Positions 1-62,159 of a DNA stretch of 64,000 nucleotides are shown piece by piece. The stretch comes from Blasia pusilla. Taxonomy: Eukaryota. Made by a program: the position numbers and the translations under genes. The stretch spans positions 43,152,001 through 43,216,000 of the forward strand of contig CM114271.1 in assembly GCA_050084515.1 (NCBI GenBank). The letters are read 5' to 3'. Position 1 is the first letter of the stretch. Every line of letters begins with the position of its first letter. The notes below the pieces were generated by a model. It saw only the letters and a program-made list of their open reading frames with translations, ran no database searches and had not been told where the DNA came from.

Positions 1-1606
1 TATTTTTTTCTCTTCAGCCCATTCCAGAATTTCATGTGATGTAATCCTTGGCGGTCGTGGTCTAGACTCACTCTCACCATTGAATCGAGGGCCATAAGGT
101 CGCCCTCTCCAAACATGGTCTAGTGGAAGATGTCTTCTATGACTGCCAAATATAGGCTTTCCACATTGTTTGGAGAAATCTGAATCCACATACGGTCCAC
201 ATACGGTACATGCAAGTTTTCCACCATGGCTTTGCCCTGAGATTGTGCCATAGGCTGGATAATCATTTATAGTCCATAAGATCATGGCTCTAAATTTGAA
301 CCCATGTGGTCTTTTCACATCGTGGAATTCAATTCCATTCCACAATTCCCTAAACTCCTCTATCAAGGGGGTCAAGAAGGTGTTGATATTCTCTCCATTC
401 ACACTCTCCTTACCAAGTATGATAAGAGCCAACATGATAAAAAACTTTTTTGTTTGAAGCCAAGGTGGAAAATTGTAGTTAACCAATAGTATTGGCCATG
501 TTGACCATGAGCTTGCCTTATCAAAGTATGGATTAACTCTGTCAAGTGCTAAACCAAACCTACAATTTCTACCCTCTATAGCAAAATCTGGGTACAAACG
601 ATCAATATGATTCCAAGCCTTGCTGTCCCCTGCATCTCTTACCATGCCATCCTTACTTTTGTTCTCAGAAGACCAACTCAATAACTCAGACAAGGCCCTA
701 CATACGCTGGATCCGCGGGATTACAGGGAAGTGTCTCAATACCTTATTTGGTACTAAAGACTTCCCGACTTGCTTGAACCTAGCATTCCCACACTTCGGG
801 AAAATTTCTACACCTTCCAAGTCCCCTCAAAATAGAACACAACCTTTAGGGCAGGCATGGATAGAGTTGTAGCTCATACCAAGTTTACTAATGAGTTTAT
901 TTGCTGCATAGTATGATGGTGGGACAAGATTTTCACATGGGAGTACCATCTTACGTAGGAGTTTCAATATCTCATCAATTACAATATTAGGGACCCCATG
1001 GGTCGTACCAATATTGAAAAGGAGCATAACAAATGCAAGTAAAGAAGTCTTGGCTCCAGGGAAGAGTGGCTTGCATGCTGCGGTAAGCTCATGAAAATCT
1101 GATGGAATATTTGGATCACTGGTTTCATTGAGGTTCCTGTTCTCTGTCCCACTTTCATCAACAACCATATCCTCATCATGGAGATGATCATATTCTCTAA
1201 AAATATCATTCAACATCTGGGGAACATCAATATCAACATCCAAATCAGGATTCTCTGGATGCGAGATTTCAGGTCTAACATAGGATTGCATAATGTGCTC
1301 ATGTTGCTCCTTGTCATTGACCTCTTGTTGTGTGAGCCACTCCTCATCTAAAGAGTCCCACTCCTCCCTAATTTTTGGAACTCGACAAAGATGAGATCGA
1401 CCATTTTTCCTTAGATGGTCTTCTACCTTTGCTAGTCCCAAGGTAGTTCCGCCCTTGCACTCTGTACAAGGGTATCTTTCCCTCTTCCTCCCCAGTTTGC
1501 GAGACTTATCGCACTCCCTTTGCCACAACTTATAGTCGTGTGCTTGGATTCTATGAGGATGTGTCAAATCCAACCAGACGTGAGCAGTCCTTTGTGGTAT
1601 CATCAC
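1..1606 (-). pseudogene. CACTA TnpD-type transposase (transposase-associated Zn region plus Transposase_21-like domain), disrupted, truncated by window edge
   Basis: ORF 827-1606 has CTECK..VEDHL and 'KLGMSYNSIHACPKGCVLF'. Downstream frames give 'LRHFP', 'AWNHID', 'FGLALD', 'WTINDYPAYG' with stops and frameshifts. Homologous to 58573-60286. Confidence 0.92.
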
Positions 1607-3621
1607 CCCTACGTCAAGTTAATAAGAATAGAGGTAAATGAATAAAGGAAATTATGGCATCCCATTGTTCCTAACATTATAAACATGGAAGTGAAAATGT
1701 TTCAGTATGGTGGATATCTATTGGAGCATAATATGTTGATTTCAATATAAATGAAGGGAGAATCCGTAATTATCTATGTACCTTGAGTATATCAAGTATA
1801 CCCCTCCAGGAAATATAAACCTCTCGTTGATATCCTTCTGTGATAGTGATAATTTGATCCTCTACAATCCGCAAATGAACTTTGACACACACCTTCACAA
1901 CATGACACATGCAGATGTCTTAAGTATATGCGTAGAGATTGTATCACGTGAATGATCAGATATAAATACGTCAATACAGTTTGAATACTATAAGGTGGTA
2001 TAAGATTTATTTTTCCCTAAGTCTATGTGCACTTCAAGTGATGATTTATCTATGATTTCAGAATTTCATACCATTTCCATGTCAAATGCCTTATATATTT
2101 CTTCATTTAAACATTGTAGCTTTAAGTTTTTTTGGGCAAATTATGCATTAAAAGAAAACCACAGAGTCAGAGGATTAGCCCTCATCGCTACATAACAAAA
2201 CCTGGTTCAATTTTTAGCCACATCACAACTCCACAAACACTTTGCTGCCCTGATTTTTTTGTCATCCAGAATACTGCATTTTGTGGTAAATTTTGCGTAA
2301 TATTGCATTCTATGTTGATGGTATGGTAAGATATAGAAAATCAAACCACTTGGCCTATCCATTCATGCAAAAATTGAAATCATCCGCATTTACATCAACT
2401 GGATAATGGCTTTCTATCCGATGTTGCTGGTCATTATAAACCAGTTTAAATCAAAAGTCAGTGTTCCAAAATAAGCTTTGAGCTCCACTTTCTCTACTAG
2501 CTCCCTCTTACTTCATCTCAAAATCTGGTATATATATCCAAAATTCCAATCTGTAGTCATTGGTGAAAATAGTTTCTCTATCACTTGTAATACATGAGTT
2601 CCTTAAAACCATCCTTTTCTGCCTTTTTAACAAAATGAAGTCAATCTCACTAAAAAATTTATAGAGTTTGAAAGTTCCAAACCTACCAAGCTGCTTTCCT
2701 AGAACGCCACCAAATAGGGCCACAACAAAAATGAGCACAACATGGGCAAAGACGACCACTCAGGTTCTCCCTACGATAACTAGTTGCGCTGCATATTCTC
2801 TCACCAGGAAGTCTCTCCATTCTCACAGAAGAGTACTCAAATCTGATTATACATGGTTTCCCAGAATATGCAATAGCTGCATGGATAAGAGCCAACGCTT
2901 TCCTAAATATGGGTGAAGAGTCCTCACTGACGACCATGCCATCAGAATCATGACAGATATGAAGGGTCATGATCTCTGCAACACCCATCATCAACCAAAG
3001 AAGGATGCAGTATCGATCCTCTTGCCTAGACACGAAATCAGAGACCGTCACATATACATGGCGTGCTTTTGAATGAAAGCGCCAATTCTCAATTCGTTCA
3101 TGTCAGGTCCAATACCAATAGTGACGTGAGTGTAAAGAACAAATCATCACTTGAACTTCAGTAGGTAGAATTTGGATGCGTTGAACCAAGGAAGGTTGTC
3201 TTTGATGTAGTCGTAGGCTGCCATGAAGTTCAATTTGTACATCAAGCGGTGGTTGGTCAACTGGATTCATCCTTCAGGGTAAAGTAGTGGTCCTCTGAAA
3301 AATACCTTGGAAAAGTATCGGGGAGAGTTGCACACAGGGAGAGCTACACACAGGTGATCGGTGGCGCTCACAACAGGAAGCAACAACTAGCTTTGAGTAC
3401 AAGTAGTACTGAATCCTGCATGGCTCGGAATCATAAAGCTTTGTCAAAATTTTCTTGAAGTACGCCATCAAAAGTGGAGCTCAAAACAACACGTAAAGCA
3501 ATAGACTTGGGAGAATAGACCTTAAACCAGAGAAGAGAGCTTGCAAGAAATTTTGAATTACGGGAAGAACCAGCAAAAAGACAATGAACAACCAATCACA
3601 GTAAATGATTCGTGATGGAGC

Positions 3622-4350
3622 CCAAAGAAATGGGATGGCTCTTTTGTAGGCTCTTCTCAACAAACACAGGAGCATCATCAACAGCTATAGCAGCAATAAC
3701 AATTAACACAACATCAACAACACTTACAACGACATTAGCAGCAACAGTTGATGCAACAACAACTACAGCAGGTTGCAAGGCAAAGTATGCAATCTCATAA
3801 ATGGGAGGGCTCTTTTGTTGGCTCTTCTCAACAAACACAAGAAAGATCATCTCTGACTACAAAAACAACAATAATTAACACAACATTAGCAGTACTTACA
3901 ATAGCATTAGTAGTAGCAAAAGGTTATACAACAAAAGCAACATCAATTACAGCAACAGCAGATGGAACAACAACACGACTAACTATAACAACTCCAACAA
4001 CAACTTTTACTTCAGCAGCAGGAACAGTAATTGTTGCAGCAAAAGCAACATCAATTACAATAGCAGATGATGCAACAATAGCAGGAGCAGTTACAGTAGC
4101 ACCAACAACAACTTTTACTTCAGCAACATGAACACAAATTGCTGCAGCAGCAACAAATTATACAACCAAAAGCATTATCAATTACACCAGTAGCGGATGC
4201 AACAGTAACGGCAGATGCAACAACAATAGGAGCAGCTACAACAGTAGAATCAAAAACTTTTATTTCAGCAACAAGATCAGTAGTTGTTGCAGCAGGAGCA
4301 ACAACAACATCAGCAGTAGCAAAAATATCAACAGCAACAGATGCAATTAC
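3622..4350 (+). pseudogene. Decayed poly-glutamine, repeat-built ORF
   Basis: One reading gives 'KKWDGSFVGSSQQTQE' and 'HKWEGSFVGSSQQTQE' plus three units starting AAAGCA(A/T)..TCAATTACA (about 3934, 4042, 4169; QKQHQLQQQ-type). At least 15 TAG/TAA stops sit inside the CAG/CAA runs. Confidence 0.6.
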
Positions 4351-5672
4351 ACAGATTTGATTGACCTCCAAGATCAGCTTGATGCAAGCAAGGTACTGAA
4401 GTGATAAATCTTCCTGCCATTCGTCTATATTTCATTTTCCAGACTGACCTGTAACGTAATGAAAGGATTTGGGGTGCTCACCAAGGAATTCAAAGAAGCA
4501 ATTGGAGATCTTAAATTTTAGCTTGAGACTCTTCTGGCTGAAGGATTTCTATGCCTCGAAATGCGCAGGCCACAATGAAGGAGAGACTGAAACAGAATAA
4601 AGAGTTGAGGGAAGAAGCCGAGAGGATACGTTGGGAGCTGCAGCGAATAACAGACGATAAAGAATAAAGGGCCAGTCAAGTGCAGGCTCTCATCAAGGAG
4701 AACATGCGGTACAAAAAAATGCACCGGGAAGTCTGCTGTTGAGCTTGAATTGATGAGCAGCAAAGCTGTCGCCCTAGAGGTAGTATTCGCTTACATTGTG
4801 AATTCTGTGAGTTAACGTTGGACATGAGATCTGGTAGAAATTGACCTTCATTCTTCAAGTTTTCCTTTGGTCGAGCTTTACTCCAAACCTGGTTGGTCTC
4901 TAACCATGATCGCATGAATGGAACAAGAAAATGATCCATGAGGTTGATTTTCCAGTTGAACTGATGCTTTCTAGGAAGGATACACGTCATAAAGTGAACA
5001 AATGAAGGCCTTGCAACAGCAATTGGACTTTGCGCACCAGAAGTTGAAGGTACGCACATGTCCAGTAGACTTTTACCAGTCAAGCTTCATTTGCACGGAA
5101 GGGTGTAGGTTTCTGAAGATTTGGAAACTTTATCTGGGTCCTTCTTCACCAAGCCCCGTACATTGCAATTTTACCACATGGTAGAGGCAAGAATAGCAGA
5201 GAACGAATGTAACGGGGACGAATAAAAAGGTAAACTGGAAGAAGTTCAAGAGAGACTTCGTGAAGCTGAGATAAAAATTCATGATGGGGAGCTTGTGAGA
5301 AGGAAGCTCCATAACACCATTTTGGTAACCTCTGTTCCACATTGGAGTCTCCTGCTATTTTCTGAATGCCATTTCGTCATGACTATCCATTACATGGTCA
5401 TTGATGAAGACGTCCTATATTGCGACCTCCTGTTTGTTTATAAGTCATGTGTCTGCCACCGATACCGGGTTTGGATCACTGATGAAGAGAAGGGAGTAGG
5501 ATAACTTTGCTGGATTGGAATACGCAGGAGCTCAAGGGCAATGTACGAGTGTTCTGCAGGGTGCGCCCTCTCATGCCTAACGAGGATGAAGGTTCTGTGT
5601 TAGACCCTCCCGTTCAATATCCCACTTCAACAGAGTTCGCAGGCAAGGGTATTGAACTCATTCAAAGTCAAG
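4351..5672 (+). pseudogene. Kinesin-14 (ATK/KatA-type C-terminal motor kinesin) gene fragment: coiled-coil stalk, neck and start of motor domain
   Basis: Spliced exons ~4351-4392 (DLQDQLDASK), 4569-4779 (ATMKERLKQNKELREEAERIRWELQRITDD...GKSAVELELMSSKAVALE; 1 stop, +1 A frameshift), 4975-5049 (EGYTS*SEQMKALQQQLDFAHQKLK), 5178-5324 (...[23 protein letters not shown]; acceptor reads CAC) and 5528-5672 ([17 protein letters not shown]...GKGIELIQSQG). [14 protein letters not shown](I/V)RVFCRVRP is the kinesin-14 neck signature. Confidence 0.9.
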
Positions 5673-5950
5673 GTCAGTGAGTGTGTTGGATCCCTTTGGA
5701 TTCTGTCATTGTCTCGCCTGTGATGAATCCGCACTTCCAGAAGTGGTCGACTCCATGGGAAGCGGTGTTGTTGTATTTTGGAGTTGATGTGGGACAATGA
5801 ACTCATGTGTTGTAGTACGTGGAATTTATATGAAACTATCTATATGTCAGGAGAAAGCATAAAGTTGTCCAAACTGAGGAGAATCATCAAGAATCCAACT
5901 TTCAGCTTGCTGAAGTACCTGGTACCTCTGAAGATGCACGAACTGAAGAA

Positions 5951-6900
5951 GTGGCAGAGACATTGCCAAGGAGATCCGGAAGAACGAGAACACCTATTGA
6001 CAGGTTGGGAGTTCATCATGAGAAACATGCTCACTCCTCAGTGGATGAAGAAGCTTGTCTTACTATGGATGGAGAAGATGAACCGAAAACACTTGCACAC
6101 GCTATGAGTAGACCTGATTGGAGCAAGTGGGAGATTGCCATTGATCAAGAGAAAAGGTCTCTTGCAAAGAATGGCACATGGGAGTGGACTGATCTACCCA
6201 AAGACAGGAGATCCATTGGTTGCAAATCGGTTTTCAAGATCAAGAGAGGAGCTAACAATGAAGTGGTAAAGTACAAAGCTCGTCTTGTAGCAAAGGGTTT
6301 CAATCAGCAAGCTGAAGTTGATTATACATAGACCTTTGCTCCTATAGCACGGTCTGGTTCCATAAGGTTGCTTTTAGCTCTAGCTGCTGAAGAAGATTGG
6401 GAGGTGGAGCAATTAGATGTGGAGATTGCTTTTCTAAATGGAGACCTAAAGGAAACCATCTACATGGATGTTCCAGATGGGTATGGTGGACATAGGGGCA
6501 ATGCATGTTTGTTGAAGAAGGCATTGTATGGTCTTAAATAGGCTCCAAGAGCCTGGTATGAAAAGTTGGACTCTTACCTTAGGGAACAAGGGTTTTGTAG
6601 AGCTCATGCAGATTTGAGTGTTTACTACAAAAATGGTATATTGTTTATTGCAGTGTATGTAGATGACCTCCTGTTGCTAGGCAAAAGTAAGAAAGAAATC
6701 CAGCAAGCAAAGGACAATCTTTGCTCAGTCTTTGCTATGACTATCATAGGCCCAGTGAAGTTCATTCTTGGAACTAAAGTTGAGAGGAACAGAGCAGAAG
6801 GATGGATTAGACTCAGTCAGACTCACTACGTTGATGCGATGCTGACAAGGTATAGAATGGCTGAGGAAAAGCCAATTTCTACTCCACTAGATTTACCCAC
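5951..6900 (+). mobile_element. Ty1/Copia reverse transcriptase fragment, no LTR visible
   Basis: PKTLAHAMSRPDWSKW..KNGTWEW, YKARLVAKGFNQ, QLDVEIAFLNGDL, LYGLK*APRAWY, VYVDDLLL, KPISTPLD. Confidence 0.9.
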
Positions 6901-7243
6901 GATAATCATTCTGTAAAATGAGTGGTCACCGTCGAACAATATATGTGATAGAGACGAGGATTTCAATAGACGAATAGCTCCTATTCATGAAGGAAATCTA
7001 TCGAATGTAATTGAGCAAAAACTCTCAATCCAATGTGGTAAGTAAGAGAAACTAACCCGTAAGCGCATTTGTCATGCCAAAACCCGCAGCCAGGGCTAGA
7101 GCTCAACCCTAGATCCTTGATCTCGGTACTCTGCAATGTAATGTTGCAGTGTGCTCCACATTCAGAACCATATCTCTCTACATTAGCATTCTCTCTCCGG
7201 ATCTGCCTCAACATTCTCTGTCTTCCTCGGGAAATAGCTCTCT

Positions 7244-7590
7244 CTATGCCTCGAGCTAACTTGCGCACTCTCTCCTCCTCGGGCTCACTCGATCATGCTC
7301 TCATGAGTTAGCTCTCCCTCTGATGCTTTAGCTCTCACTCACGCTAGCTAGCTCTCCCGCGTTTGCTCTCTTTGCCTTTGGCTCTACAGATGAGCTTGAT
7401 CTTGCCCTTGTTGTTAGCTTTCTATGCCTCAAGCTAACTTGCGCACTCTCGCATTAGGTCTCTCTCCTCCTCGGGCTCTTGTGCGTTAACTCTCACTCTA
7501 CCTTAGGCTCACTCACACTAGCTATCTCTCCCGCGTTTGCTCTCTTTGCCTTCGACTCTACATATGAGCTCGATCCCGCCCTCGTCATTT
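7244..7590. repeat. Imperfect duplicated blocks (~180 bp spacing) inside CACTA A
   Basis: CTATGCCTC(G/A)AGCTAACTTGCGCACTCTC at ~7244 and ~7422. CTCTCCCGCGTTTGCTCTCTTTGCCTT at ~7352 and ~7526. Confidence 0.75.
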
Positions 7591-7904
7591 GCCGCAAGCT
7601 TATTCTCTTCCTTAGGTATCGTCTTCGTTCGCAAAGCCTTCTTGTGAGTGACACTACTCTTGCCTCCTGTAGCTAAGATCCATCGCTCTTCATAAGATAA
7701 GTGTTTCTAGGACTTTTTCCCAACCCATCTACGAGCGAATTTTTTTTGGTGAATGATGTTTAATTCCATCAAGGTGGGAGTATTTTTGTTCATTTAGTTC
7801 AAAATAAAAGTAAAGCTGAAATCATTATTCTATTGAATTTTTTAATTATTAATAATAAATAATTAATATCACGTGTTAGAGTTTTAAAATAACTCAATTC
7901 TTAG

Positions 7905-8165
7905 CAAGTCATTTTGGGACATAATGGAGCCATATCCCAAAATTCTACAATGACTTAGTCATATTTTTATATGACTAAGATGTTAGTATTTGATGGAAAG
8001 ATATGACTACCATATGACTAAGGGACATTCTAGTCATACGTTTGAGTCATGAAAAACATCAGTCATATTTTATATGACTAAGGGACATTCTAGTCATACG
8101 TTTGAGTCATGAAAAACATCAGTCATTTTAGTTGTAGTCATAAAAGTCATGCTTTTCTTCTAGTG
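7905..8165 (-). repeat. CACTA terminal inverted repeat and subterminal ATGACT/AGTCAT array, including a 60-bp-period tandem duplication (8012-8126)
   Basis: Seen directly. The same motif fills both ends of CACTA B. Confidence 0.9.
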
Positions 8166-11100
8166 TTTGAAGCCCAACTTATAGTTGCGCTTCCCAAAAT
8201 AAATGAATAACGAGATATGGAGTATCGATCAGACACGCTTCATGCCCAATCAGCATCTGTGAATCCCTGTAATTAAAAACTCGGAGAAGGTTCAAATTAA
8301 AGCCCAAATTGAATAGAGAATTCACATATCGCATAATCCTCCTCATAGCATCAAGGTGAGGTTTTCGAGGTGCTTGCATAAACTGGCTCACTAGGCCAAC
8401 AACATAGCACAAATCTGGTCTGGTTATAGTTAGATAGATCAAAATTTCAACCATACGCTTGTACATATTAGAATCTGCAAGGAGCTCTCCTTCATCCACT
8501 CTTAGCTTCACGCTCTGGTCCAACGGTGTAGAGATTGGCTTACAAGCCGTCATACCATATTTTGAAAGCATATGAAGAGCATATTATCGTTATAGTAACC
8601 ACATGCTCTCTCCAACCTTGATAAACTCAATACCAAGGAAGTACTTGAGTTCTCTCAAGTCCTTCGTATCAAATTCTTCTTGTAACTTAAGCTTGACTTG
8701 TTGTATCATTTCTTCAATACTCCCAGTAATCAAGAGATCATCAACATACAACACAATGAGAACTGTATGATCTTGTCCTCTCAAGACATATAACGAGGAG
8801 TCAGAATCACATACCCTAAAACCCAACTCTTATAGGACGTATGTAATCTTGCCATACCAAGCTCTTGGAGCTTGTTTGAGCCCGTATAGAGCTTTCTTCA
8901 ACCTACATACGCGAAATGGAAACTTAGGATGCTCGTATCCAGGTGGTTGAGTCATATATACCTCCTCACATAGATCTCCATTCAAGAAGGCATTCTTGAC
9001 GTCCATGTGATGTAATCTTCACCTCTTACTTACTCCAAGTGCAACCACTGTTCTCGTAGTCGCCATCTTTGCAACAGGGCTAAATATTTCCTCATAATCG
9101 ATACCATATTGTTGTGCATAGCCCTTAGCCACCAATCTCACTTTGTATATGTTAATTGTACCATATTGATTGCGTTTGATTTTGTAAACCCATTTGCAAC
9201 CAATAGCTTCCTTACCGGAAGGTATATCAACCAACTCTCATGTTTGTTGATGTCTTAATGCAAGAAGCTCTTCCTCCATAGCTTCAATCCATTCGGCTTT
9301 ACTCGTAGCTTCTTCAAAACAACTCGGCTCCTGCTCTTGAAGGGTAGTCATCATATATGCATAATGTTTCGCAAAGAAACCTTCCTTTATGAATCTATGA
9401 ACTGGATGTGTAACTCTACTTCATCTACGAAGTTGTTGTTCAGAAGTAGATGCCTCTGACACCTAACTTGAGCTCTGACTAGTGTTAATAGACTGAATAT
9501 GTACTCTTCCCGTCCATGGACTGACAGATTTAATGGATGAATCGAGGACCTCTCCTAATCCTGCACTAGTACTTGGGGAAGTTGAAGACAATGTCTATTG
9601 GTTTATAGTCATATTCTCCCCCTCAATAGACAAGTTTAGAGGTGGAATAGGCTCAAATGGAGCATACCATGACTTTAGCTCATCAAAGACAACATCTCGA
9701 CTAATAATAAGATGCCTAGAGGATGGAATGTAGCACTTATATCCCTTAGTTCCATCAGCTTAGCCAATGAAGATACATCTTTCAGACTTGGGGTCTAATT
9801 TCTGACGTCTCTCAGAAGGAACATGAGCATAACAAATACATCCAAATACTTTCAAGAAGGAAAAATCAGGTTTACTTCCTGTGAAGACTTTGAATGGAGT
9901 TTTATCATGAACTCCTGCTGTTGGAGTTTGGTTGATTAAGAAGACCGCACATGCTACAGCCTCTGCCCAATACATATTAGGCATGTTCTTCTCATTCAAC
10001 ATAGCTCGTGCCGCTTCAGCAATATGTCAATTTTTCCTCTCAGCCACTCCATTTTGTTGTGGAGTGTAGTGGCAAGTCACTTGACGTTGGATGCCATTCT
10101 GACGTAAATAGTCATCAAACTCTGTTGAAAGATACTCTCCTCCTCCATCACAACGTAATTTCAGAATGTGTTGTTTAGTCTGCTTCTCTACCTTAACTCT
10201 AAATGTTTGGAACATTGAGAATACCTCTGACTTGGCTTTCAAAAAGTATACCCATATATACCTAGAGAAGTCATCAATACATAAAAAAAAGTATTGGAAA
10301 CCACTAAGGCTCTATTGTGATGTTGTCCACACATCACTGTGGATCAACTCCAATATCTTGGATGCTCTTCTACCTTGCTTTGGAAAAGGAAATCTAGCTT
10401 GTTTTCCAAATTGGCAAGCTGGACATACCTCTAACATAGTAGGACTCGCTAATTTAGGAAGTCCTATTACTATATTAGATGATGAAAGACTCTGTAATCT
10501 TTGAAGATTCATATGTCCAATTTTTTTATGCCACACATTTAGATCTGTGACTTGTTGGCCGGTTTGACCATACATTGTTGTTTGAATCTCTGGCATAGAA
10601 ACATCTAATTTGAACATTCTACTAGATCTAGTTCCTTTGGCTATCGTAGTCTGATCATCCATTATTTCAATGAAACAACCATGTGCGTTAAACTTCACTT
10701 GATAACCCTGTTCTACTATCTGTCCTACAGAGATCAGATTTCTTGCAATTATAGGAACATAGAGAACATTTCCAAGAGCACAAAGACCATCTGATGCTAT
10801 TGGAACTTTACCGGTATGCGTGATATGATGTTGAGTGTCATCTCCTGTGAGCACAATTGCAGGATCTTTCTCCGGCTCCAAACTACTGAACCATTTTGCT
10901 TGTGAGGTCATGTGATTTGATGCACCAGAGACAATGTACCAATCTGATTTCGAGTCTTTCTTGACCATTGCTCCCATATGATGAGTCATGACCAAAAGAT
11001 GCTCCGTTTGTGAATGTTGTTGTTCTTGGTACTGCTCTTGGTGTTGTTGCTCCACATAGTTTTGTTGCTGTAAGGCTCCTATTCTCATATCTGCCTTCTT

Positions 11101-12789
11101 CTTGAAGTAAAACTTTGCATAGTGACCCTTTATCCCACAGTAATTGCAAGATCCAGGGACCCTCTGCTGTTGACCTTGACCCCAACGGTTTCCACCATCA
11201 CCACCATGTGATTGTGTCTGGTACTGGTTCCGAGTTGATTGAGTGACATTATATTGAGTGTCTCTTCCTCCATATATTGGATATCCACCACGACCACGGA
11301 AGTTTCTGCCACGACCCCTGCCTCTGTTTGATCCATAACCTGCAAATAGCGCACTCTCTTCCAGACTAGACGAGCTACCGCTACCTACTAGGCGCATCTC
11401 TTCACTGATCAACAAAGGAACTAACTCTTGAAAGGTTGGATACTTCTCTCTCATAGAGATAGAGGTCTCAAAGGACTTGTAATCCTTTGGAAGGCCTTGA
11501 AGAGTGAATAAGATCATATCATCATCTTCTACTGTCACTCCAATGCTATTCAACTGATCAACAATATGTCTGATACTCAAAATATAATCATTGATGCTCT
11601 GCGATCCTTTCCTCACTTCGTTCAATTGATGTTTCAATTGAAGCTTTTTGGCCTTTGAAGATGTCTGGAACATCTTTTCCAATGCATCCCAGGTCTCCTT
11701 CGGAATATCAACATCTTGGATGTGACCTATCATTGGCAAACTGATCGTTATTGAAATGTAGTGGATTACTTGCCTTGCGCGTTTGTTCCAAGCGCGAAAA
11801 TTCAAGTGTGTTGAGTCACCTTCTGGCTTGGCCTCATCACCTGTGACAAGCTCCCATAGTTCTTGATCCATGAGAAATTATTTCATCCAAAATTTCCAGA
11901 CATTATAATTCTGCTTGTCTACCTTCTCGCCTATGATTGCCGCTCAGGGATACTCCATGATAAACGATTTCACTCACAAGAAATGTAATTTCAAGCTTTC
12001 TACTGCTCCAATTGAAGCATAGACCACTCTTACATAGAAATCGACCTGAAATTTGCCAAAATTGATCAATTGTATGAAAGAACTAGTAGAAATTGGCCCG
12101 CAGAGAGCAAACTGCACAACTTTTCTTCATTAGTTGCACTTTCCAACACTGAAATTGCTATTGCAGGATCTCAGAGTGTCAGAATCAAGCGATTTTGGGT
12201 GTATTGGAAGGCTCTCAATGAGCTCTACAAGAAAATTGGAACAAGTCTTTGATGTCATCAAAGCTGAAGTGGATCCTGATGGCTGAATCGACCGGAAAAG
12301 CCCTAAAAAATGCCTCCAAAGTTTTATCACCATCAAAGCTCCATTTGAAATTTGCACCCATTGAGCTTTGAATAAAATTTCCTTCTCCCGAACTGAAATT
12401 TTGCCTTCTCTTGCCTCTCTTCTCTCTTCAAACACCAAGAATTTCAAGTGATGTTCTCCTCCTGCTCTGATACCATGTGGAAAACTGCTAAACAAGCATA
12501 ATTGGTGGAAAACGGCTCTCACACACAGACACACCATCATGGAGAACGAAATTTTCAATGATAGAAGGAGTGGAGACTAGTCCTCTTCTCAATTATATAG
12601 GGTATGTACAAGCAACCCTAACCCTATCCTTAACCATAGTCGCGAGTTAGCCTAACTGTTATTAACTAACCCTAGTTAAGATAATCGTGCTTAACTGACT
12701 AACCAAGATTAAGCTTCCCTATCTCAAGTGAGTGCCTAATGTAGCAGTTCATGTGTCTCATAAGCTTGACTGTAACTCAATATTCAATA
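8166..12789 (-). mobile_element. Ty1/Copia LTR retrotransposon, 3' part displaced by the CACTA insertion; disrupted gag-pol ~11958 to 8169
   Basis: Gag UBN2-like region with degenerate zinc knuckle (CNYCGIKGHYAK), protease (SGASNHMT), GAG-pre-integrase, integrase (YTPQQNGVAERKN), RT (LYVDDLLI) and start of RNase H, in Copia order. PBS TGGTATCAGAGC at 12475-12464. Confidence 0.95.
12476..12789 (-). repeat. 5' LTR of the Copia element
   Basis: Starts TG on the plus strand directly after the tRNA-iMet PBS. Ends ...TTCAATA (probably CA mutated to TA) exactly where a Gypsy reading frame resumes. Confidence 0.7.
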
Positions 12790-14540: not shown

Positions 14541-17500
14541 TAGTGCACGGAGGGTAGTGGATAAAGGGGCGAGTGTGCAAGGTTCATCCAGCCGTCCCTT
14601 CTAGGGTGCGGATGATCGGACGGCAGTTCACAACTTTGCACTTCGAGAGTCGGGACTCGGGAGAGAGGGAGGCAGGGGTCGAATGAGCTCGAGGAATTTG
14701 CAACTCGAGCCTCGGCTTTCATTTTCTCCTCTCTCCTTCCTGAATGCTCGTGGCCGCGTCTCTGCTTACTCTTGCTCGCCGTGTTGCTCGTCGTCATCCT
14801 GAGCGCCTCGTTGTTGGCTGCTCGGTGTGCTTAGTGCTTACTCCTCGAGTCCTCACCGTGACACCGTCCTCGGTGCCTCCTTGCTCGTCGTCGTCTTGGG
14901 CGCCTTGTTGTTGGCTGCTCGGTGTGCGTAGTGCTTACTCCTTGAGTCCTCACCGTGACACCGTCCTCGGCGCCTCGTTGCTTGCTCGTCCTCGGCGCCT
15001 TCTTGCTCGCTCGTCCTCGGTGCCTCCTTGCTAGCTCATCATTGTCTTTACTCCTCACTGCTCTCCGCGCTCATTGTCATGATTGCTTAGTTCTTATTAT
15101 GTTCGCTCAATGCTCTATTTCTCTTGCTGCTCAGTCGCTAATTCACGCTGCTCCATGCTGCTCAGTTGTACTGCTTGCTGCCACCACACCGTAGGTGACA
15201 AAAAGTGGAAGAAATCGGAAGAAATCGGCTGTCGAACACACCTCATCGAGTTCCGGGAGTTGGACAGGCGAGTGTGACTCACTCAGAGTCTCAGACGCTC
15301 ATCCAAGCCTCATCCCTGTTGTAGGAGTTAGGGACTCGGAACTTGGGACTCGGGAGAGAGTTGGGGAGTGGGGACTCGATCCTCAATCCTCATGTGCTCG
15401 ATCTCACACCTCATTCTTGTGCCATTGCAATCCGGGAGAAGCCCGCACACACTGCATTCTCCTCCTACTCGCCGCTCGCTTATTTTCCTGTTTTCTCTCA
15501 AGAGTTAGGGAGTTGGGGCCCGAGGGAGTAGGGGTCAGGGACTTGGATCTCATTTGCACTCTTGTAGCTTGTCATTGTTGCTCTTTGTTGAATTTCAGGG
15601 AGCCTTTCATTGGTTCTGTAAACCCTTGAAACCGTCCGAGCCTAAACCCTTTACAAAGGGTTTCAAAGTAGTGAACTCTCAAAGTCCCTTATGGAGGATA
15701 TTTCGGCCAACAATGCATCTAGGGGTAAGAGACAAAAATCTCTCATTGATATGGGGTTTATGAAGAGGGTTGTTAGTGAACCAGCAGTAGAAACCAACTC
15801 ATGTGAGGAGATAGATTCTCCTTCAGATCTTGCCTCTTCAAAGATTGAAGAGAACAACATGCTTTGGAAAGACTCTTGGTATCGAGCTTTTGAATGGATT
15901 CAATTTGAGCCTCACACGGGGAGGGTATTTTGTAAAGTGTGCAAGGACTCAGGAGGGAAATCTATATTTGCCACATCCGGAGCCATCAATGTGAAGATTT
16001 CTGCCTTCACAGACCATGGTAAATCCAAGGAACATAAAAAAAACTGGCTTGGGCTCAGTATAGTGGTAGAAAAACTCTACAAAAAGCTATTGCAAGCACC
16101 AATAGAAACTGTGATTTAGCGGTGCTTAATCTTTTTCGAGGAGCATACTTCATGGCTAAGTATAATGTTGCATTTTCCTCATTCCCTGGTCTCTGTACAT
16201 TACTCAAATCTGGATCTATGATGCTCAAAAAATCGATGTATCAGGATGACAAGACATGTGCATATATGATAACATGTATTAGTTTGGTAATTCAAAGATT
16301 GCTTCTAGCTAGGGTTAGATTTAGTCCCTTTTACGGAATAATGGTAGATGAATCCATTGACATATCAGTAACAGGACACCTCGTTGCCTTTGTCACTTAC
16401 CTTGATGAAGGTCAAGTGTGCACCTCCTTCTTAGGATTGATCAAGGTTGAGAACAAGGATGCCGAGTCCATTTCAGATTGTTTAGTATCCTTACTTAGGG
16501 AATGGGAATTGGATTTTGAGAAGATGATTGGTTTTGGGTCTGATGGGGCCAACACTTTGGTAGGTACTAGGAATAGGGTAAGTGCTCGTTTGAAGAGGAA
16601 TGTTAATCCTTACATGACAAGCGTCCATTGTGTGGCACACCGGACAAACTTAGCTGCTCTTGGTACAGCAAAGAGCCCAGGGTGCAAGGAACTTAGTGAT
16701 GAGGTGGATAACATTTTGAATTCTATTGCATTTTATTTCAAGTAGAGTTCTAAGAGGAAGTCTGGTCTCTCTTCTCTACAAGAGGAGCTAAAAGATTCTA
16801 GGAAAGTCATGAAACGTTATCAGAAGGTCAGATGGCCTAGCAGGTGGCAAGCCGTTACCTCTTTATGTGATAGTTTAGAATCTGTCATGGTCTACTTCTC
16901 TACTGTGAATCCGAAGGAAGATGATGGGGTAGCTTCACATCTTCTAAAGAGGTTAAAGTCCTTCAAAATGATTTACATTTTATACTTTCTGGCTGACATA
17001 CTTCATTCTATGGCAATGTTGAGCAAGTTATTCCAAATGAAGTTTGTTGATATATCTAGCGTTGCTTCTATTGTTCACACTGAGATAGCACATGTTAGAA
17101 TGAATTATGTACATGAAAGTGTAGATATGAATGCCTATCTCATTTCTCAGTCTAGCGGTTTTCATCTCCTTCCGAACTATGATCCTAGTGATGGATATGT
17201 GCAGCGCTTGCAATCAGAGATAAGGGGTTCTTTCTTTCATTCAATCCAAATGGATAGGGATGTGACAGGAAAGGATATAGAAGAAGCTATTTTTTTTCCA
17301 AAGGAATTTTGGTGAGGCCATATGTGTAGCTTTGCAAGAAAGGTTTGAAGACAATAACATCATTGGAGGTTTTAAGATCCTCAATCCATCCCAAATGCCT
17401 TCTACCATATCTAGTTTAAGAGATTGGGGTGTGAGAGACTTGGAAATGTTGAGCTCTTTCTATGGACATGAAAAAACCTTGCATGGCAATGTGAAAAAGC

Positions 17501-18469
17501 CTCTTCTAGATGGTGCAGCCCTCAAGAATGAATTCGTGGCCTTCAAGATTCAGGCCATGACAGAATGGAAAGAGAAGTCCTTAAAGGACTTATGGTGTAT
17601 GGTAAGTGGTAGTCCGAGCGTGAAGGCTAAGTATGCTAATCTCTGTATTTTAGGTGATATAGCTAGAGTCCAATGTGTATCAACAGCATCATGTGAGAGA
17701 GCTTTTAGCATTAAGAATGTCATTAAGAATAAGTTAAGAAATAGCTTAACCCCTTATCACTTGGAAGCTTTGGTGAGGGTTAACATGGAGGGTCCAAATG
17801 AGAATTTTGATGTGGATAAAGTCCTCATTTCTGCTATGGACACATGGAAACAATCAAAGGAATAAATATTTATATATGTTAATCCAGAGTTGTACATTGT
17901 TCCTCCCGTTGTACTTGAAGTTGATGAGGAAGGTGAGCTTAACCCTGACCTTTCATCCTAGTTTCTCTATGACTTCATTTCATTTTGCAAATGCTTTTAC
18001 TAGTTATTCATTTTCTGTAATCAGACCCCTCCTACAAAGAAAGTTCATTGTAAGAATACTCCTTGTAGGAAGGGTTCTTAGCACCTCTGGCCCTCAACTG
18101 GTAGGGGGAATTCTGGTTCAACTCCAGCCAGACGTAATAAGGACGTGAACTGAAAGGCTAAGGAGGGTTCTTAGCACTTCCGGACCCCATTTGGGAGGGG
18201 GAATTTTGGTTCAACTCCAGCTTATAACCAGAACTAAACTGAAAAGTATAATGTGACAGCAAAAAACTGGCATGCCAACTCCAAGCCCATTAAAAAACTG
18301 GTGATTCAAATTACATGCAGGAAATAAACTGAGAAGGAAAAAAATCTTGGGCAAAAACGTGATAAGGTAAAAGTCTTAGGGGGTCGGCTGAGACAAATTT
18401 CAGAAAACCTGAATGTTTCACATAGTCCCGGTAAAAAACTGATCACTGAAAAATACTGTCCGAGCACTG
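14541..18469 (+). mobile_element. hAT-superfamily DNA transposon (putative limits)
   Basis: Imperfect TIR pair TAGTGCACGGA / TCCGAGCACTG around a hAT transposase. GC-rich tandem repeats at 14790-15030 and AAAAAACTG repeats near the right end. No matching 8-bp TSD, so the limits are uncertain. Confidence 0.55.
15691..17865 (+). pseudogene. hAT transposase (ZNF862/DUF4371-like, with TTF-type zinc finger and C-terminal dimerisation domain), frameshifted
   Basis: FEWI..RVFCKVCK..HGKSKEH, GIMVDESIDIS, GFGSDGANTLVG, SVHCVAHRTNLA, VRWPSRW, STASCERAFS...KNKLRNSL across four ORF pieces. Confidence 0.92.
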
Positions 18470-36184: not shown

Positions 36185-39100
36185 GATGAGAAAATAGAAA
36201 GTGACAAGATCACTAAAATCTTTACAAAACTTAGAGATACAAAGTGGCCTAGTCCGTCCGTACGCTCACAGAATAGCTTCGATGGAACTTGAATATGGAG
36301 ATAACTCGACCTACAAGAATGCGCTATCGCTGCGGTTTTTGACTATTTCACTACTCGAGAAACAAGGATTTTTCAACCTATTTTTCTTTGTTTCTATTAA
36401 TAGAAAGATTTGGCTAGGGACTGCACCCCCAGACCCCTGCGATGTATCAGGGTTTGATAATCCTACTAACGCTACTCCATAAACCACCTACGTCATATTA
36501 CTATGACTCCTTCGACGTCTAAGTTGAAAACATCAATCCAGGCTTCTCCTCATACAAAGGGGCCGATCAGATTAATGGTGCTCAGAGAAGTGGTTGTTGA
36601 GAATCCAATACCCCCCCTCAATATCCATTCTCAAGTGGACTACTGTCTTGGATCTATGCCGAGACCCTTCAGATGTCGGTGAAGCTGATCTCCGCTCAAA
36701 GCTTTTATGAAGATGTCTACACGGTTATCCTCTATTGGACAATAGACTTACTTCAAAACCTCTCTCTCGATCAATTCATGAACAAAATGATACTGGATCT
36801 CTATGTGCTTCGTACGAGCATGAAACACAGGATTATGTGTTATGGCAATGCAACTCTGATTGTCACACCACATTATAGTAGCACTTTCTGGTGCTTCTCC
36901 TATATCCTCCAATATCCATCTCAACCATACTGCTTCACAAGAAGCATAACAAGCCGCCTTGTACTCTGCCTCGGTAGAAGAAAGAGCCACTCTAGGTTGC
37001 TTCTTGCTGACCCATGATACTACACCTTATCCTACCAAGAAGCAATAACCCGAAACTGATATCTTAGAATCTGAATCTCTTGCCCAATCCGAGTCATAAA
37101 AAGCTATCATTTTCGTCCCTGCTCAATAGGTGATTCCATACTCTATAGTGCCTTTGATGTACTTCAACACATGCATCCCTGCCTTCCAATGGTTTTCACG
37201 AGGCTTAGTTGAGAACCTTCTCAACACTGCCACATCAAAGCTAATGTATGGTCTAGTGTTACACAAAAATATCAAATTGCCTATAAGCTTTCTATACAAC
37301 TTTTCATCTACCAATGGTGAAACATCCTCCATCGAGAGTTTCAACTCTACCTCCATTGGCGAGACCATTGCCTTACACTCGGTCATCACAAATGCCTTCA
37401 AGATTTCTCTAGCATACTTTTTCTCGGAGAGAAAATTAGAATGTGACTGTTGCCAAATCTCCAGCCCTACAAAGTAGTGCAAAAGACCTATATCTAACAT
37501 GCCAAACTCAGATTTCAACAATCCCTTCATTTCCTCTATTTTCTTACTGTGGTCTCCTGTGATGATCAGATCATCCACATAGAGGATTATCAACATATAC
37601 ATCCCATCTTCGCAAAACGTATACAAATTTTATTTTGACGGACTCTTGATGAGACCCTTCTCTCGGAAGAATGTATCTACTCGTTGATACCATACCCTTG
37701 GGGCTTGCTTCAACCCATACAATGCTCAATGAAGTAAACACACTTTCTCTTCTGATCAGAGTATCTCAAAACCTGGTGGTTGAGATACATACACCTCCTC
37801 CTTGAGACTCCCATTCAGAAAGGCAGACTTCACATCGTATTAGTATACATGCCAACGTCATGTTCCTCCAACCGCTAGAATAATTCGAATGCTTTTCATC
37901 CTTGCAATAGGAGCAAAAGTCTCATAGTAGTCAAAACCTTTGATTAGTGAACATCCTTGTGCAACCAACCTTGCTTTGAATTTATCCAATGTACCGTCCA
38001 ACTTGTACTTGGTCTTGTACACCCACTTGGTGCGTATTATCTTCCTGTCCTTTGGATTCTCAACCAAAGTCCAAGTTTCATTTCTCTGAATAGCGTCCAT
38101 CTCCATCTACATGGCCTATCTCCATTGAGGATGATCAAGGGCCTCATCTAAGCATGATGACTCTTCCACCTTCAAGACCTCTGTCATCAAGGCCATGTTG
38201 ACGAGATGTGCGGAAGCTTTATTCTGCTCCTCTAGTCTCTTGGATCTCCTTGGATGTGTAACAACTTCATCCATTTTTGGTGGATCCTTACCGTCCAAGA
38301 GCTATTTTATCCACTTAGGGTATGACGACTGTAGTGGAAGAGCAGGCTGGTCCTTGTAATCATCATCAAATTCTTCTTCTTGATGATCTGGTGTAATCAT
38401 TGGTGGTGTGCTCTGGTGGGTTATCTCTTTGTTTGAGGATAATGTGGAGGGACCATTGATATCCGCCACTTGATGAGGCTGTTCTTGGAACACCACATCA
38501 TGACTCACAAGCATCTTCTTTGCCTCAAGACGCCATAGGCAATAAGCTTCAGACTCATCACTATATCCCATAAAGATGCACTTTCTCCTCTTGGACTCTA
38601 GCTTGGTCATGGATGCTTCAGGAATATGTACAAAGCATTCACTACCAAAAGTCCTAAAATGTTGGATTGATGGTAGCTTACCTGAGTATGATTGATGAGG
38701 AATTAGGCCTTGCACTGACTTGGTAGCACTTCTATTTAGAATGTAAATGGCAGTATTAACAACTTCAGCCCAAAATCCTTCTATCAAACCTTTGCTTTCA
38801 TCATACATCTTGCCATCTCCACCACTGTACGGTTTCGACGCTAAAAAACTCCACTTTGTTGTGGTGTATGTGCCGTGGATAACTTTTGCTTGATTCCATG
38901 CTGCCCCAAATATTTGTTGAATTCTGTTGGTAAGAATTCTCCTCCTCGATCGGTATGAAGCTTCTGTACCTTCTTTCATGTCTCATCAGCTTGTGCAATA
39001 CTTTAAATTTTCCAAAAGCGCTTGCCTTATCACAAAGGAAATACACCCACATCTTCCTACTATAATCGTCAAAAACTAAAAAGAAGTAGGAAGAACCACA

Positions 39101-41171
39101 TAATGCCATTGTTCTCATTTTACCACAAAGGTCAGCATGAATCAGCTCCGGCGGAGCCTTTGCTCTATTGCTGGACTCTTGTGGAAATGGTTGTTGGTGT
39201 TGCTTGCCCATCATACAAAGCTTCACATGTATCTGAAACTCCAGAAATTGTTGGTAAATCAACAACCATGCCAGATTTCTGCATCTGACTTAGTAAGGGA
39301 AAGCTTAGGTGACCAAATCTTTCATGCGACAACTTGCTGCTACTAAGATCTGTACCAACACTTGTTGTGAAAGCATACAACTCGTAGATATTTGCACGTC
39401 ATATACCTTCACCCACTACTTTTCCATTGACATCCTCAATGACTACTCCAATTTTCTTGAAACAAACTTCTAGGTCACGATCACATAATACTGCTACTGA
39501 AATCAAATTACGCTTCAACTTTGATACGTACAATACATCAATTAACTTCTTTTCATCTCCTTTTTGTGAGACTAAAGAAATTGTGCCTTTCCCTTCTATA
39601 GGGCACTTTGCATTATTTCCAACAGTAACAACGATGGGCTCTTGTAGAGGCTGTAAGGAGCTATACCAATCCTTATGATTGGTCATATGCCTAGATGCTT
39701 CACTATCGAGCACCCATGCATCTTCACTCTTTGACTTAGTGGAATGCTCTGCCTGTGTGCAAAACTCTCCGATTGCTATCCAAGTATCTACTTCATATTC
39801 TCCTAGTTCTACAAAATTTCCAGACTCCTTCTTAGGTCTTAAACAACCGTTCTTCTTATCCTGACTCCTCTTTCTATAATCTTTGATAAGATGACTTAGC
39901 TTACCACAATAAAAGCATTTGAAGGCTTTCCTTGGAAATTTCTTCTTGATATTTGAACTGTAATCCTGATTTCTACCTCTCTGTACGTTGGCAGTAAATG
40001 CTACATCACTTTCCTCTCTTGGTTTGAAGCGCATTTCCTCTTCTACCAACATTGCATAAAATTGTTCAAAAGTAAGCGGCGTGGGTCTTACTTGAATATT
40101 CAATGCAATGACCAAACTATCATACCTTGGAGGAAAAATCCTTATGCATCGACGTGCCAAATCTTCGCTAGACTTTGAAATTCCTATGGACGCCATATGA
40201 TCTTGAAGATTCTTGATCCTTGTCAAAAATTGCTCTGCGCTTTCTCCTTCTGAAAATTTCTCGGACGTAAGCTAATTCTCCAAATTTTGAATCCGAGTCT
40301 CATTCCTCGTTTCATATTGATTCTTTAGAATATTCCATGCCTCAACAATAGTGGTTGTATGTTGAATGAGAGTCATGACAGAATCAGTTACATTTGTGAC
40401 AATGGCATGTAGAGCATCAACGTTTCTGTGTTTCCATGGCAGCAATATAATAGGATTCATATCACCAGATGAAGATGAAGATGCAAAACTCAAAGTAGCT
40501 TGTGGATTCGAATCGACCCCTGTGGCCGTCTCCCACATCTCAATTGATTCGAGGACAGTTCTCATTTTGAACTTACACAATGTATAGTTAGACCCATCTA
40601 ACTTCCCTTCACCCAGTGGAGGAGGGAGAGCAAAAACTGACGAAGAAGTAGCCATCTCTCAAGATTTTGTGCAAACACTCTAGATCGCCAGATATAAAAT
40701 ACTGGAAAACCTACTGCTCTGATACCATGTGAGAAAACAAAAAGTGACGAGATCATTGAAATCTTTACAAAACTTAGAGATACTAAATGGCCTAGTCCGT
40801 CTGTGCGCTCACACAAGAGCTTTGATGGAACCTAAACATGGAGATAACTCGACATACGAGAATGCGCTACCGCTACGGCTCCCGGCTATTTCACTACTCG
40901 GGAAACTAGGGTTTTCTTACCTATTTTTCTTCATTTCTATTAATAGAAAAATTTCTAGGATTATCTAATCCTATATTGCATAAGGGTGCCCTGCACCTTG
41001 ACGCAATATAGGGTTAGATAATCCTAGTAACGCTACTCCATAAACCACCTACGTCATATTATTATGACTCCTTCGACGTCTAAATCGAAACCATCAATCT
41101 AGGCTTCTCCTCATACAAGGAGGCCGATCAGATTTATGATGCTCAGAGAAGTGGATGTTGAGAATCCAACA
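36185..41171 (-). mobile_element. Structurally complete but decayed Ty1/Copia element (5' LTR 40728-41171, 3' LTR ~36185-36610)
   Basis: PBS TGGTATCAGAGC 40727-40716, PPT TTGAGGGGGGG 36621-36611. gag (KLDGSNY, CFYCGK), protease (LDSEASRHMT), integrase, RT (ILYVDDLII) and RNase H (ALSSTEAEY, HARTKHIE), with many stops and frameshifts. Confidence 0.96.
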
Positions 41172-44285: not shown

Positions 44286-44855
44286 AAGGTGTTATATTGA
44301 TGACATCGTAGTCTTTAGTGCCACGGTTGAGGAGCATGAGCGACATCTAGAGGAGGTGTTTTGACGATTGCAATTACATGGGCGCGCTGAAGCTACATCC
44401 TGACAATTGCAAGTTCTTCTACGACCAGATTGAGTACTTGGGTGATACGATATATCCAGGGGGCCTTGGTGTTCAGCAGACGAAGGTAGAGGCTATCTCA
44501 CGCATTCCACGCCCTAAAGATGTGATCCGTGTTCGCGCATTCATGGGATTGGCGAACTTCTATCGGCGGTACGTCAAGGGATTCAGTTCGATTGCGAAGC
44601 CGCTGACCTTGCTGACCAAGGTGGATCACGAGTGGCACTGGAGGGATGAGCAAGAGCAAGCATTTCAGGTGCTCAAGGAGAGGTTGGCGTCCATGCCAAT
44701 CTTGAGGAGACCGATCAGTGGGAGTCCTTTCCAGTTGCACACAGATTGGAGCATGTTGGGGCTTGGAGCGGTGCTCACCCAGCATGATGATGAGGGTAGA
44801 GAGTTCATGGTGGCTTACGCTAGGTGCTCGAACAACGCTGCAGAGGCGAAGTACA
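44286..44855 (+). mobile_element. Gypsy RT to RNase H fragment, relatively well preserved
   Basis: YIDDIVVFS, LKLHPDNCKFF, RAFMGLANFYRRYVKGFS, PFQLHTDWSMLGLGAVLTQ. Confidence 0.92.
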
Positions 44856-45160
44856 TGGTGGATAACAAATCATTTGGGATCCTATATATGTCATTATATG
44901 ATGAATTAGATAAAATTATAGAGCATGCTTCATCTTTAGTAAATTTTTTTTCATGGATGGTTCAAGTAGAATAGGGAAGAAACTTTTAAATAATCTTCTC
45001 CTTGCAAGTGACAGTAAGAATTGTATGAGGTATCGCTTTAGTTGTTCCATTATTTGGGCTAGTTGCTTCATTATTAGATGAAGGACGTAGAACACACTCA
45101 CATTTATGAATTTTGATGAAAGCTCTACTTGCAAGCTATGTGTTAATAAGGATGGAATAC

Positions 45161-58400: not shown

Positions 58401-58572
58401 GTAGATGTGAGACATAACAATCGTTGAAACTGACTGGATAATGTATGTATCTTGTGGTGTTGTAGTAGATAAGTGGAGCTTATAGTCTCTGAAAAATATA
58501 TATAGGTACTTTCATTCTCTTATAATTTTATCAAAATCTGAAAAAAATCACTCAACATAGACAACCACTTAA

Positions 58573-61944: not shown

Positions 61945-62159
61945 GCCCGATCTCATAGATGTTTTGCAAGAGACAAAGATGTAGCAAATGAAAATAATTT
62001 GGATTTCTCCGGATTAGAAATTCCTACTAATTTGCCTATAATTATACAACTTTCTTGTGTAGCTCCTAGTACAGAGTTAAGTGATGCTGAAATTAATATC
62101 TCGATGAAGGATTTGAGTAATGTGGATGTAGTGTTAACATTCTCTCTCTGAAACCTCAG

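Follow-up and report, generated by a model that had tools for sequence, protein, structure and literature searches.

The window analysed here is a 64,000-nucleotide stretch of the genome of the liverwort Blasia pusilla (assembly GCA_050084515.1, contig CM114271.1, positions 43,152,001 to 43,216,000 of the forward strand). Near its left edge, a piece of a kinesin-14 gene with its introns lies on the plus strand, between the terminus of a CACTA (EnSpm) transposon at 8165 and a CACTA transposase encoded on the minus strand. The terminus, the transposase and the sequence between them are treated as one element, element A; a second CACTA further right, element B, is complete and serves for comparison. 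The window is plant-like and packed with transposons (Copia, Gypsy, hAT and the two CACTA elements), and no intact host gene was found among the open frames tested in it. A first-pass annotation, made from the letters of the DNA alone, had proposed that the kinesin piece was captured by a CACTA element.

A kinesin-14 gene fragment copied as DNA

In a tblastn search of the 64-kb window with a Marchantia KIN-14 protein (P0002, 864 amino acids), residues 304-506 were recovered as five collinear, non-overlapping matches on the plus strand, at 4366-4392, 4563-4779 (two high-scoring pairs in two frames), 4966-5052, 5166-5324 and 5528-5677. With the window as database, the E values of these pieces range from 1e-19 to 7e-26. 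Over all pieces together, 156 of the 208 aligned residues are identical to the Marchantia KIN-14/ATK-type kinesin; identity to six other land-plant kinesins is lower, ranging from 41 to 65% (Riccia, 64.5%; Calypogeia, 60.8%; fern, 56.5%; conifer, 55.1%; moss, 47.6%; lycophyte, 41.4%). These identities point to a liverwort-like host. The matched part runs from the end of the stalk through the neck to the first residues of the motor. No convincing match to the other kinesin regions (residues 1-303 and 507-864) was found in the window, the three remaining P0002 rows having E values of 6.6-10. The motor core with its P-loop and switch regions was likewise without a convincing match in the window; the sole row from residues 507-864 has an E value of about 7 at 25% identity.

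The last piece (50 amino acids) gave 220 matches to public proteins at E<=0.01, the best of them (3e-15) to liverworts. Among the matches listed, those named by their source are either kinesin-14 or generic "hypothetical/unnamed" proteins, and the best named ones are KIN-14C, KIN-14D, KatA and a Marchantia "kinesin family member C1". Its PDB matches are the necks of KIFC1, Kar3 and Ncd. Exon 5 also matches Pfam Microtub_bd at E 1.5e-4, which is under the curated cut-off, and exon 4 alone (32 amino acids) reaches only E 1 against PDB, which is chance level. By sequence comparison, the predicted source of the fragment is confirmed as an ATK/KIN-14C-type kinesin-14 gene. The first-pass annotation had read an ATK/KatA-type stalk, the neck and the first motor residues at this place; the tblastn pieces, PDB necks and named protein matches agree with it, the neck and motor start (end of exon 4 and start of exon 5) read as it gave them, and the fragment does match a kinesin-14, at residues 304-506 of P0002.

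The exon-intron structure was resolved with read data carrying the same species label, namely a whole-genome raw-read run (X14), an RNA raw-read run (X17) and contigs of the older runs X1 and X2, all compared with positions 1-8400 of the window at 80% likeness. RNA reads skip precisely the four introns of the fragment, as listed here with the number of X17 reads for each joint:

4366-4392, plus strand: kinesin exon piece 1 (partial), P0002 residues 304-312, 9/9 identical
4393-4568, plus strand: intron 1, GT..AG; RNA joint 4390>4567, the cut lying 2 further right, 32 reads
4569-4779, plus strand: kinesin exon 2, with a TAA at 4665-4667 and one extra A in the run 4712-4718
4780-4974, plus strand: intron 2, GT..AG; RNA joint, 17 reads
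4975-5049, plus strand: kinesin exon 3, with a TAA at 4990-4992
5050-5177, plus strand: intron 3, GT..AC, the acceptor mutated from AG to AC; RNA joint 5049>5178, 22 reads
5178-5324, plus strand: kinesin exon 4, stalk end and first half of the neck, with a TAA at 5223-5225
5325-5527, plus strand: intron 4, GT..AG; RNA joint, 26 reads
5528-5672, plus strand: kinesin exon 5, covering the rest of the neck and the first residues of the motor
5673-5840, plus strand: beginning of intron 5 (GT donor at 5673), a stretch that contains the right breakpoint of the kinesin piece

The five exon pieces, the GT-AG introns and the one mutated acceptor described in the first-pass annotation are thus borne out by the sequence and the RNA joints. 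Its starting point at 4351 needs correction: homology begins at 4366, the first 15 bases being CAA-rich flank, and the left breakpoint falls in the middle of an exon, at 4365/4366. Open frames within intron 1 (4470-4560) were considered as coding sequence and dropped, since the RNA joints place them in the intron. The fragment carries three TAA stops, one extra A that shifts the frame and one lost acceptor, and it has no start context; owing to the stops and the frameshift, it holds no complete open kinesin frame. The extra A of exon 2 (site 4713) is absent from 25/29 RNA reads, from 11/15 DNA reads and from all X1 and X2 contigs that cover it.

The same RNA reads reveal where the fragment came from. 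At the left border, 30 reads depart from the window just before 4365, and, as we read them, their loose letters code for the amino acids upstream of this position in the Marchantia protein. At the right border, 29 reads run past 5673 into letters that, again in our reading, encode the parent's next exon (...KHTFTFDKV). The consensus of the loose ends has an agreement of 1.0 at both borders. Since the reads continue at both ends into kinesin sequence absent from the window, an intact, spliced and expressed parent gene exists elsewhere. The introns of the fragment stand at the parent's splice positions; therefore, the fragment is a DNA-level copy and was not retroposed, as the first-pass annotation had concluded from the introns.

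The probable surrounding CACTA element and its complete relative

Within the window, element A is taken to extend from the left edge to 8165. Apart from the kinesin piece, it contains the following features:

1-1618, minus strand, running off the left window edge: CACTA (EnSpm) transposase coding region, body of element A, with Transposase_21 and an N-terminal frame
2521-3360, minus strand: part of the CACTA core, lying upstream of the frame for the transposase and perhaps containing 5' exon(s); DNA depth of 37-47, like the transposase
3600-4365, no strand: CAA/CAG-rich minisatellite adjoining the kinesin piece, with repeat families D1, D2 (108-nt unit, 3 copies) and D11
5841-6892, plus strand: internal piece of a Copia pol gene (linker and reverse transcriptase, RT), 1052 bp, without long terminal repeats (LTRs), a second cargo; Pfam RVT_2 on 5834-6331 and 6542-6916
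6893-7700, no strand: CT-rich stretch with ~174-nt repeats, families D5 and D6
7701-8165, minus strand: CACTA 5' subterminal region and terminus; the minus-strand read starts CACTAGAAGAAAAG
8166-8168, no strand: TTT, candidate 3-bp target-site duplication (TSD) by sequence, its partner end off-window

The transposase matches Pfam PF02992 Transposase_21 (tnp2), the domain expected of CACTA/EnSpm elements, on 1-720(-) at E 2e-61, and is preceded by an N-terminal open frame at 827-1618(-). No Pfam match was obtained for the frames at 827-1618(-), 2683-3102(-), 6981-7292(-) and 3739-4131(+). RNA from related CACTA copies covers 2521-3360 in the sense of the transposase, at X17 depths of 9-16. As an additional observation, 42 and 36 X14 reads, together with X1 and X2 contigs, exit the window at 1335 (before) and 1390 (behind); therefore, most related CACTA copies differ from element A in a 55-base stretch of the N-terminal region of the transposase.

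At the other end, the plus strand reads TAGTG at 8161-8165, followed by TTT. About 460 bases there are repeat-rich, with a 60-nt tandem pair and, in the terminal 260 of the 500 bases scanned, ATGACT ten times and AGTCAT five times, i.e., subterminal repeats in both orientations as in other CACTA/EnSpm elements. The terminus shares its first 11 bases with the 3' terminus of element B and 9 with the 5' terminus of element B; the other end of element A is off-window. Exactly at 8166, 379 X14 reads of the flanking Copia are clipped, so the insertion point is exact, and this copy of element A was inserted into a Copia element at 8165/8166. The interrupted Copia family is very abundant, with an X14 depth of ~490 at 8121-8400.

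From the 8165 end, in the direction of the element, the order is CT-rich block, Copia pol piece, kinesin piece, CAA minisatellite, the core at 3360-2521 and the transposase. The kinesin piece is antisense to the transposase and ~2.8 kb away from it. Its position between a CACTA terminus and a minus-strand CACTA transposase, as first annotated, is borne out by the TAGTG end and the Transposase_21 match. The borders of the Copia pol piece are set by a 1601-nt X2 contig (depth 51), which matches exactly 5841-6892 with 32 other letters and is unlike the window beyond both sides. A CACTA boundary between 1606 and the kinesin piece would place the latter outside the element. In a scan of the window, AGTCAT motifs cluster only at 7500-8165 and at both ends of element B, and no further cluster of the subterminal motif of element A lies between 1606 and 7500. 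Signs of another carrier were also sought. Of 31 pairs of inverted repeats in 3000-8200, the best was 22 nt at 73%, and none was usable as a terminal inverted repeat (TIR); no LTR-like direct repeats delimiting another carrier were found; and a simple, crude scan for Helitron-like 3' ends in 3301-7750 gave 0 hits against a shuffle mean of 0.1, which does not strictly exclude a Helitron.

Element B provides a complete CACTA in the same window:

53106-63375, plus strand: element B, complete CACTA of 10.27 kb, with ends CACTAGAAGG... and ...CTTCTAGTG and CAT on both flanks

The two CAT flanks form a 3-bp TSD, and GAGTCAT/ATGACTC repeats are present at both ends. A tnp2 transposase with DUF4218 lies at about 58570-62000 (+), interrupted several times (DUF4218 at 60375-61196), and the transposase of element A is 70% identical in nucleotides to the one of element B at 59473-60136. 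The transposase starts 5.46 kb from the 5' end in element B and 6.56 kb from it in element A, in the same relative orientation. Thus, a 5' end followed by a long 5' region and the transposase is the normal layout of the lineage. No recognisable coding sequence was found in the 5.46-kb 5' region of element B, and blastn and tblastx comparisons of 1-8300 with the rest of the window detected similarity only to the transposase of element B and to Copia RT; neither the cargo nor the 5' region of element A recurs there.

Copy number, proposed assembly of the cargo and rival explanations

The number of related copies was approached through the depth of X14 reads, given here as the sum of both orientation columns:

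1-1680: 37-45
1681-2520: 21-25
2521-3360: 37-47
3361-3640: 23
3641-4480 (mostly minisatellite): 14.5-16
4481-5880 (four kinesin bins and a bin with the end of exon 5, the start of intron 5 and 40 Copia bases): 12.5, 13.6, 9.0, 10.1, 11.7
5881-7000 (Copia piece): 22-29
7001-7560: 10-12
7561-7840 (AT-rich): 4.7
7841-8120 (CACTA end): 18.8

Intron-rich kinesin bins (13.6 and 10.1) are as deep as exon-rich ones (12.5 and 9.0); thus, the fragment is present in additional genomic copies, which account for the extra depth. Only 56 of 2975 reads are at least 99% alike, i.e., ~1x over 8400 bases. At several sites the window's letter is found in 0 of 13-31 reads, although these are the best-supported rows among those listed and hence a biased sample. 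The extra A is seen in 4/15 DNA reads and in no X1 or X2 contig; about 14% of the RNA reads also lack the gap at this position, which suggests alignment-end artefacts. Taken as an indirect calibration, these depths suggest an own-copy depth of ~1 and roughly ten copies of the fragment. The minisatellite, CT-rich block and CACTA 5' end have depths similar to that of the kinesin piece (10-19), and the transposase core is present several times more.

On this evidence, the fragment is probably carried as cargo within the 5' region of a CACTA that has a transposase and multiplied modestly. About 1.3-1.5 kb of the host's ATK/KIN-14C-type gene (4366-5840), made up of one incomplete and four complete exons, four introns and the first part of intron 5, would have been acquired. 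Together with the 1052-bp Copia pol piece and the minisatellite, it would have been built into the long CACTA 5' region, between the subterminal repeats and the transcription unit. The most likely route would have taken more than one step and involved either repair with filler DNA or template switching, or else the aberrant excision of elements nearby; aberrant excision is the model described for Pack-CACTA elements (PMC13317346). Such a route is suggested by the patchwork of unrelated pieces broken in an exon, an intron and a pol gene, and more than one step would be needed because the pieces cannot have been genomic neighbours. The cargo-bearing subfamily would then have grown to the roughly ten copies estimated from read depth.

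Several points weigh against this interpretation. As regards the integrity of element A, the window does not reach its 3' end or TSD, nor the remaining half of the Copia that it interrupts, and no read or contig among those listed bridges a cargo junction under the rule of at least 31 letters. The 5' regions of elements A and B have no similarity detectable by blastn or tblastx. As regards copy number, the ~1x calibration assumes that X14 represents the same genotype as the assembly; at a per-copy depth of 4-5, only 2-3 copies including the parent would be left. Kinesin contigs differ from the window by 3.0-3.3%, and CACTA-core and CT-rich contigs (those listed with a depth >10, which leaves out two diverged transposase contigs of depth 4-7) by 0.7-2.0%. 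The kinesin contigs might therefore be in part the parent gene, or another lineage. Finally, a search of public proteins with the open frame across exon 4 and intron 4 (5229-5504) returned 2 candidates, none significant, and is uninformative on other genomic copies. Hints of a shared junction come from an X1 contig at 4339-4793 (15 other letters, then a jump to 5707), which begins 26 bases into the CAA flank, left of the breakpoint, and from a variant at 4341-4354 in three X14 reads; both stay under the 31-letter rule and are suggestive only.

The same gaps feed the one competing explanation with some weight, a tentative one that we consider considerably less probable than capture by element A. 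According to it, the kinesin, Copia and minisatellite sequences are debris between two unrelated CACTA remnants, one of them a 5' end (7700-8165) and the other a transposase body that has lost its 5' part (1-3360), or they arrived with another carrier or a segmental duplication. In addition to the unseen CACTA end and the unbridged junctions, it can draw on the steps in DNA depth from 43 to 23 to 16 around 3360-3640, which may mark an element boundary, on the branching of the k-mer graph near 3281-3310 (contig 12 of X2 stops at 3310, and contig 4 of X1 begins at 3281) and on the nature of the window, in which Copia, Gypsy, hAT and CACTA elements are densely nested. However, an X1 contig runs unbroken over 3281-3743 (7 other letters), across the depth step, and the cargo, CT-rich block and CACTA end are alike in depth. 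Moreover, no TIR, LTR or Helitron-like signature marks another carrier, and the distance from the 5' end to the transposase resembles that of the complete element B.

A separate question is whether the kinesin piece does anything. RNA over the fragment is almost entirely kinesin-sense, with an opposite share of 7.8-8.1% in four bins. Spliced parent reads fall on the "wrong" strand in 8/97 cases; as the two shares are equal, the antisense reads represent library leakage. In intron-rich bins, the RNA depth is no more than their exonic part would give. Thus, neither sense nor antisense transcription of fragment copies was detected in the one RNA run, and the fragment looks dead and functionally inert. 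The first-pass annotation had suggested that the copy might yield small interfering RNAs (siRNAs) against the host gene or might once have encoded a motorless, dimerising stalk. Neither idea gains support from these data, which for the siRNAs consist of a single RNA run that does not cover small RNAs.

A working cargo, whose antisense RNA or siRNAs act on the parent or shield the element, or which was formerly a dimerising motorless stalk, is accordingly very unlikely. In its favour, the piece runs antisense to the transcription unit of the CACTA, RNA is made from related CACTA copies, and a "camouflage" or epigenetic-conflict idea for captured fragments is cited in a study of Chenopodium (PMC8978399). 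Against this stand the leakage-level antisense share and the exonic-only RNA depth, as well as the three stops, the frameshift, the missing start context and the expression of the parent. In its boldest form, a liverwort CACTA subfamily with transposase would have spread an antisense, intron-containing piece of an essential spindle-motor gene to ~10 loci, feeding small RNAs that tune the parent KIN-14 or blunt element silencing ("camouflage"). This is improbable; if true, it would be the first bryophyte case to be worked out in which a gene captured by a transposon interacts with a host gene.

Two other RNA signals occur in element A. Over 5881-6720, RNA reads that are 97-98% alike (the cleanest with 2-3 differences) are mostly antisense to the Copia pol piece, which is CACTA-sense, at a depth of 21-33 versus 4-12; this RNA stops short of the kinesin piece. 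In addition, ~170 RNA reads match only 52 CAG/CAA-rich bases at 4293-4344 and run on both sides into unrelated letters of glycine/arginine-like coding sequence. They probably stem from an abundant mRNA with a common low-complexity sequence and not from transcription of the locus.

It is extremely unlikely that the fragment is instead a decayed native kinesin-14 locus, or an old whole-gene duplicate broken up by transposons. The retained introns and the many transposons around would fit such a history, whereas parent mRNA reads exit the window at 4365 and 5673 into sequence it does not contain, the remaining parts of the kinesin have no convincing match in the 64 kb, the left break lies within an exon, and introns and exons alike have multi-copy depth. 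The departing parent reads and the absence of the other exons exclude the native locus, which the first-pass annotation had named as a possible refutation. A processed pseudogene of a kinesin mRNA, for which nothing speaks beyond the fragmentary state, is ruled out by the four introns at the parent's splice positions, and no poly(A) tract is present.

The rest of the window holds further remnants of transposons:

8166-11900, minus strand: Copia (gag, protease, integrase, RT), cut in the RT/RNase H region by the CACTA insertion
14600-15100: GC-rich block of tandem repeats with units of 25 nt and 97 nt (families D3 and D4), directly upstream of the hAT remnant
15646-17865, plus strand: hAT-type transposase remnants in several frames (zf-C17orf113, DUF4371 under the curated cut-off, Dimer_Tnp_hAT)
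37123-40271, minus strand: further Copia (gag, Pol_BBD, SH3_retrovirus)
44351-44974, plus strand: Gypsy-type RT-RNase H fragment

Relation to described gene captures

The fragment has the stalk end, neck and start of the C-terminal motor in common with the plant kinesin-14 motors ATK1/KatA and ATK5 (KIN-14C/D). Of ~860 residues, the fragment represents ~200, without the N-terminal tail or the motor core and with a broken frame. In flowering plants, it is well documented that CACTA, MULE and Helitron elements capture pieces of genes. No description of transposon gene capture in liverworts was found among the best matches of a literature search, which did not cover supplements. The proposed capture is of an ordinary kind, in an unusual plant group. 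If a full assembly confirms it, it will provide a clean, datable example of the same capture process in bryophyte genomes and will indicate that autonomous-type CACTAs, and not Pack-type derivatives alone, carry multi-exon cargo in bryophytes. There is also a practical side for annotation, as such pieces risk being miscalled as kinesin genes or split gene models.

The label "Pack-CACTA-like" used in the first-pass annotation applies in part. Pack-CACTA elements have been described in Arabidopsis (PMC6379663), and Pack-TYPE elements are defined as non-autonomous (PMC8903248). The presence of a host coding-gene fragment agrees with the label, provided that element A is continuous. The non-autonomous character does not, given Transposase_21 within 1-1618(-): Pack-CACTA/Pack-TYPE elements of Arabidopsis, rice and maize lack the transposase, whereas element A apparently carries one 2.8 kb from the cargo, a comparison resting on one end of element A while the other end and the TSD are off-window.

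CACTA elements with intron-containing host-gene fragments, mostly pseudogenic as here, are represented by Tgm-Express1 of soybean (PMC1947982) and by captures on wheat chromosome 3B, where 140 CACTA-mediated events are reported, most of the captured sequences being fragments or pseudogenes (PMC4290129). In these systems, some of the cargo gives rise to transcripts or ends up in chimeric RNAs through splicing, whereas no transcription of the fragment was detected here in the one RNA run.

The closest described system, which element A resembles, is found in transposase-bearing CACTAs of Chenopodium ("Jozin"-type), in which captured pieces of genes lie in the 5' region, ahead of ORF1, the first open reading frame (PMC8978399). 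These elements share with element A the tnp2/Transposase_21 domain, subterminal repeats, non-functional host exon fragments upstream of ORF1 and internal tandem arrays. They differ in that their host is an angiosperm and not a liverwort, and in that their satellite arrays lie in the 3' region, versus the 5' region in element A. The cargo in Blasia is also larger than in the Chenopodium elements described, with five exon pieces and four complete introns over ~1.3 kb, joined to a piece of a Copia pol gene.

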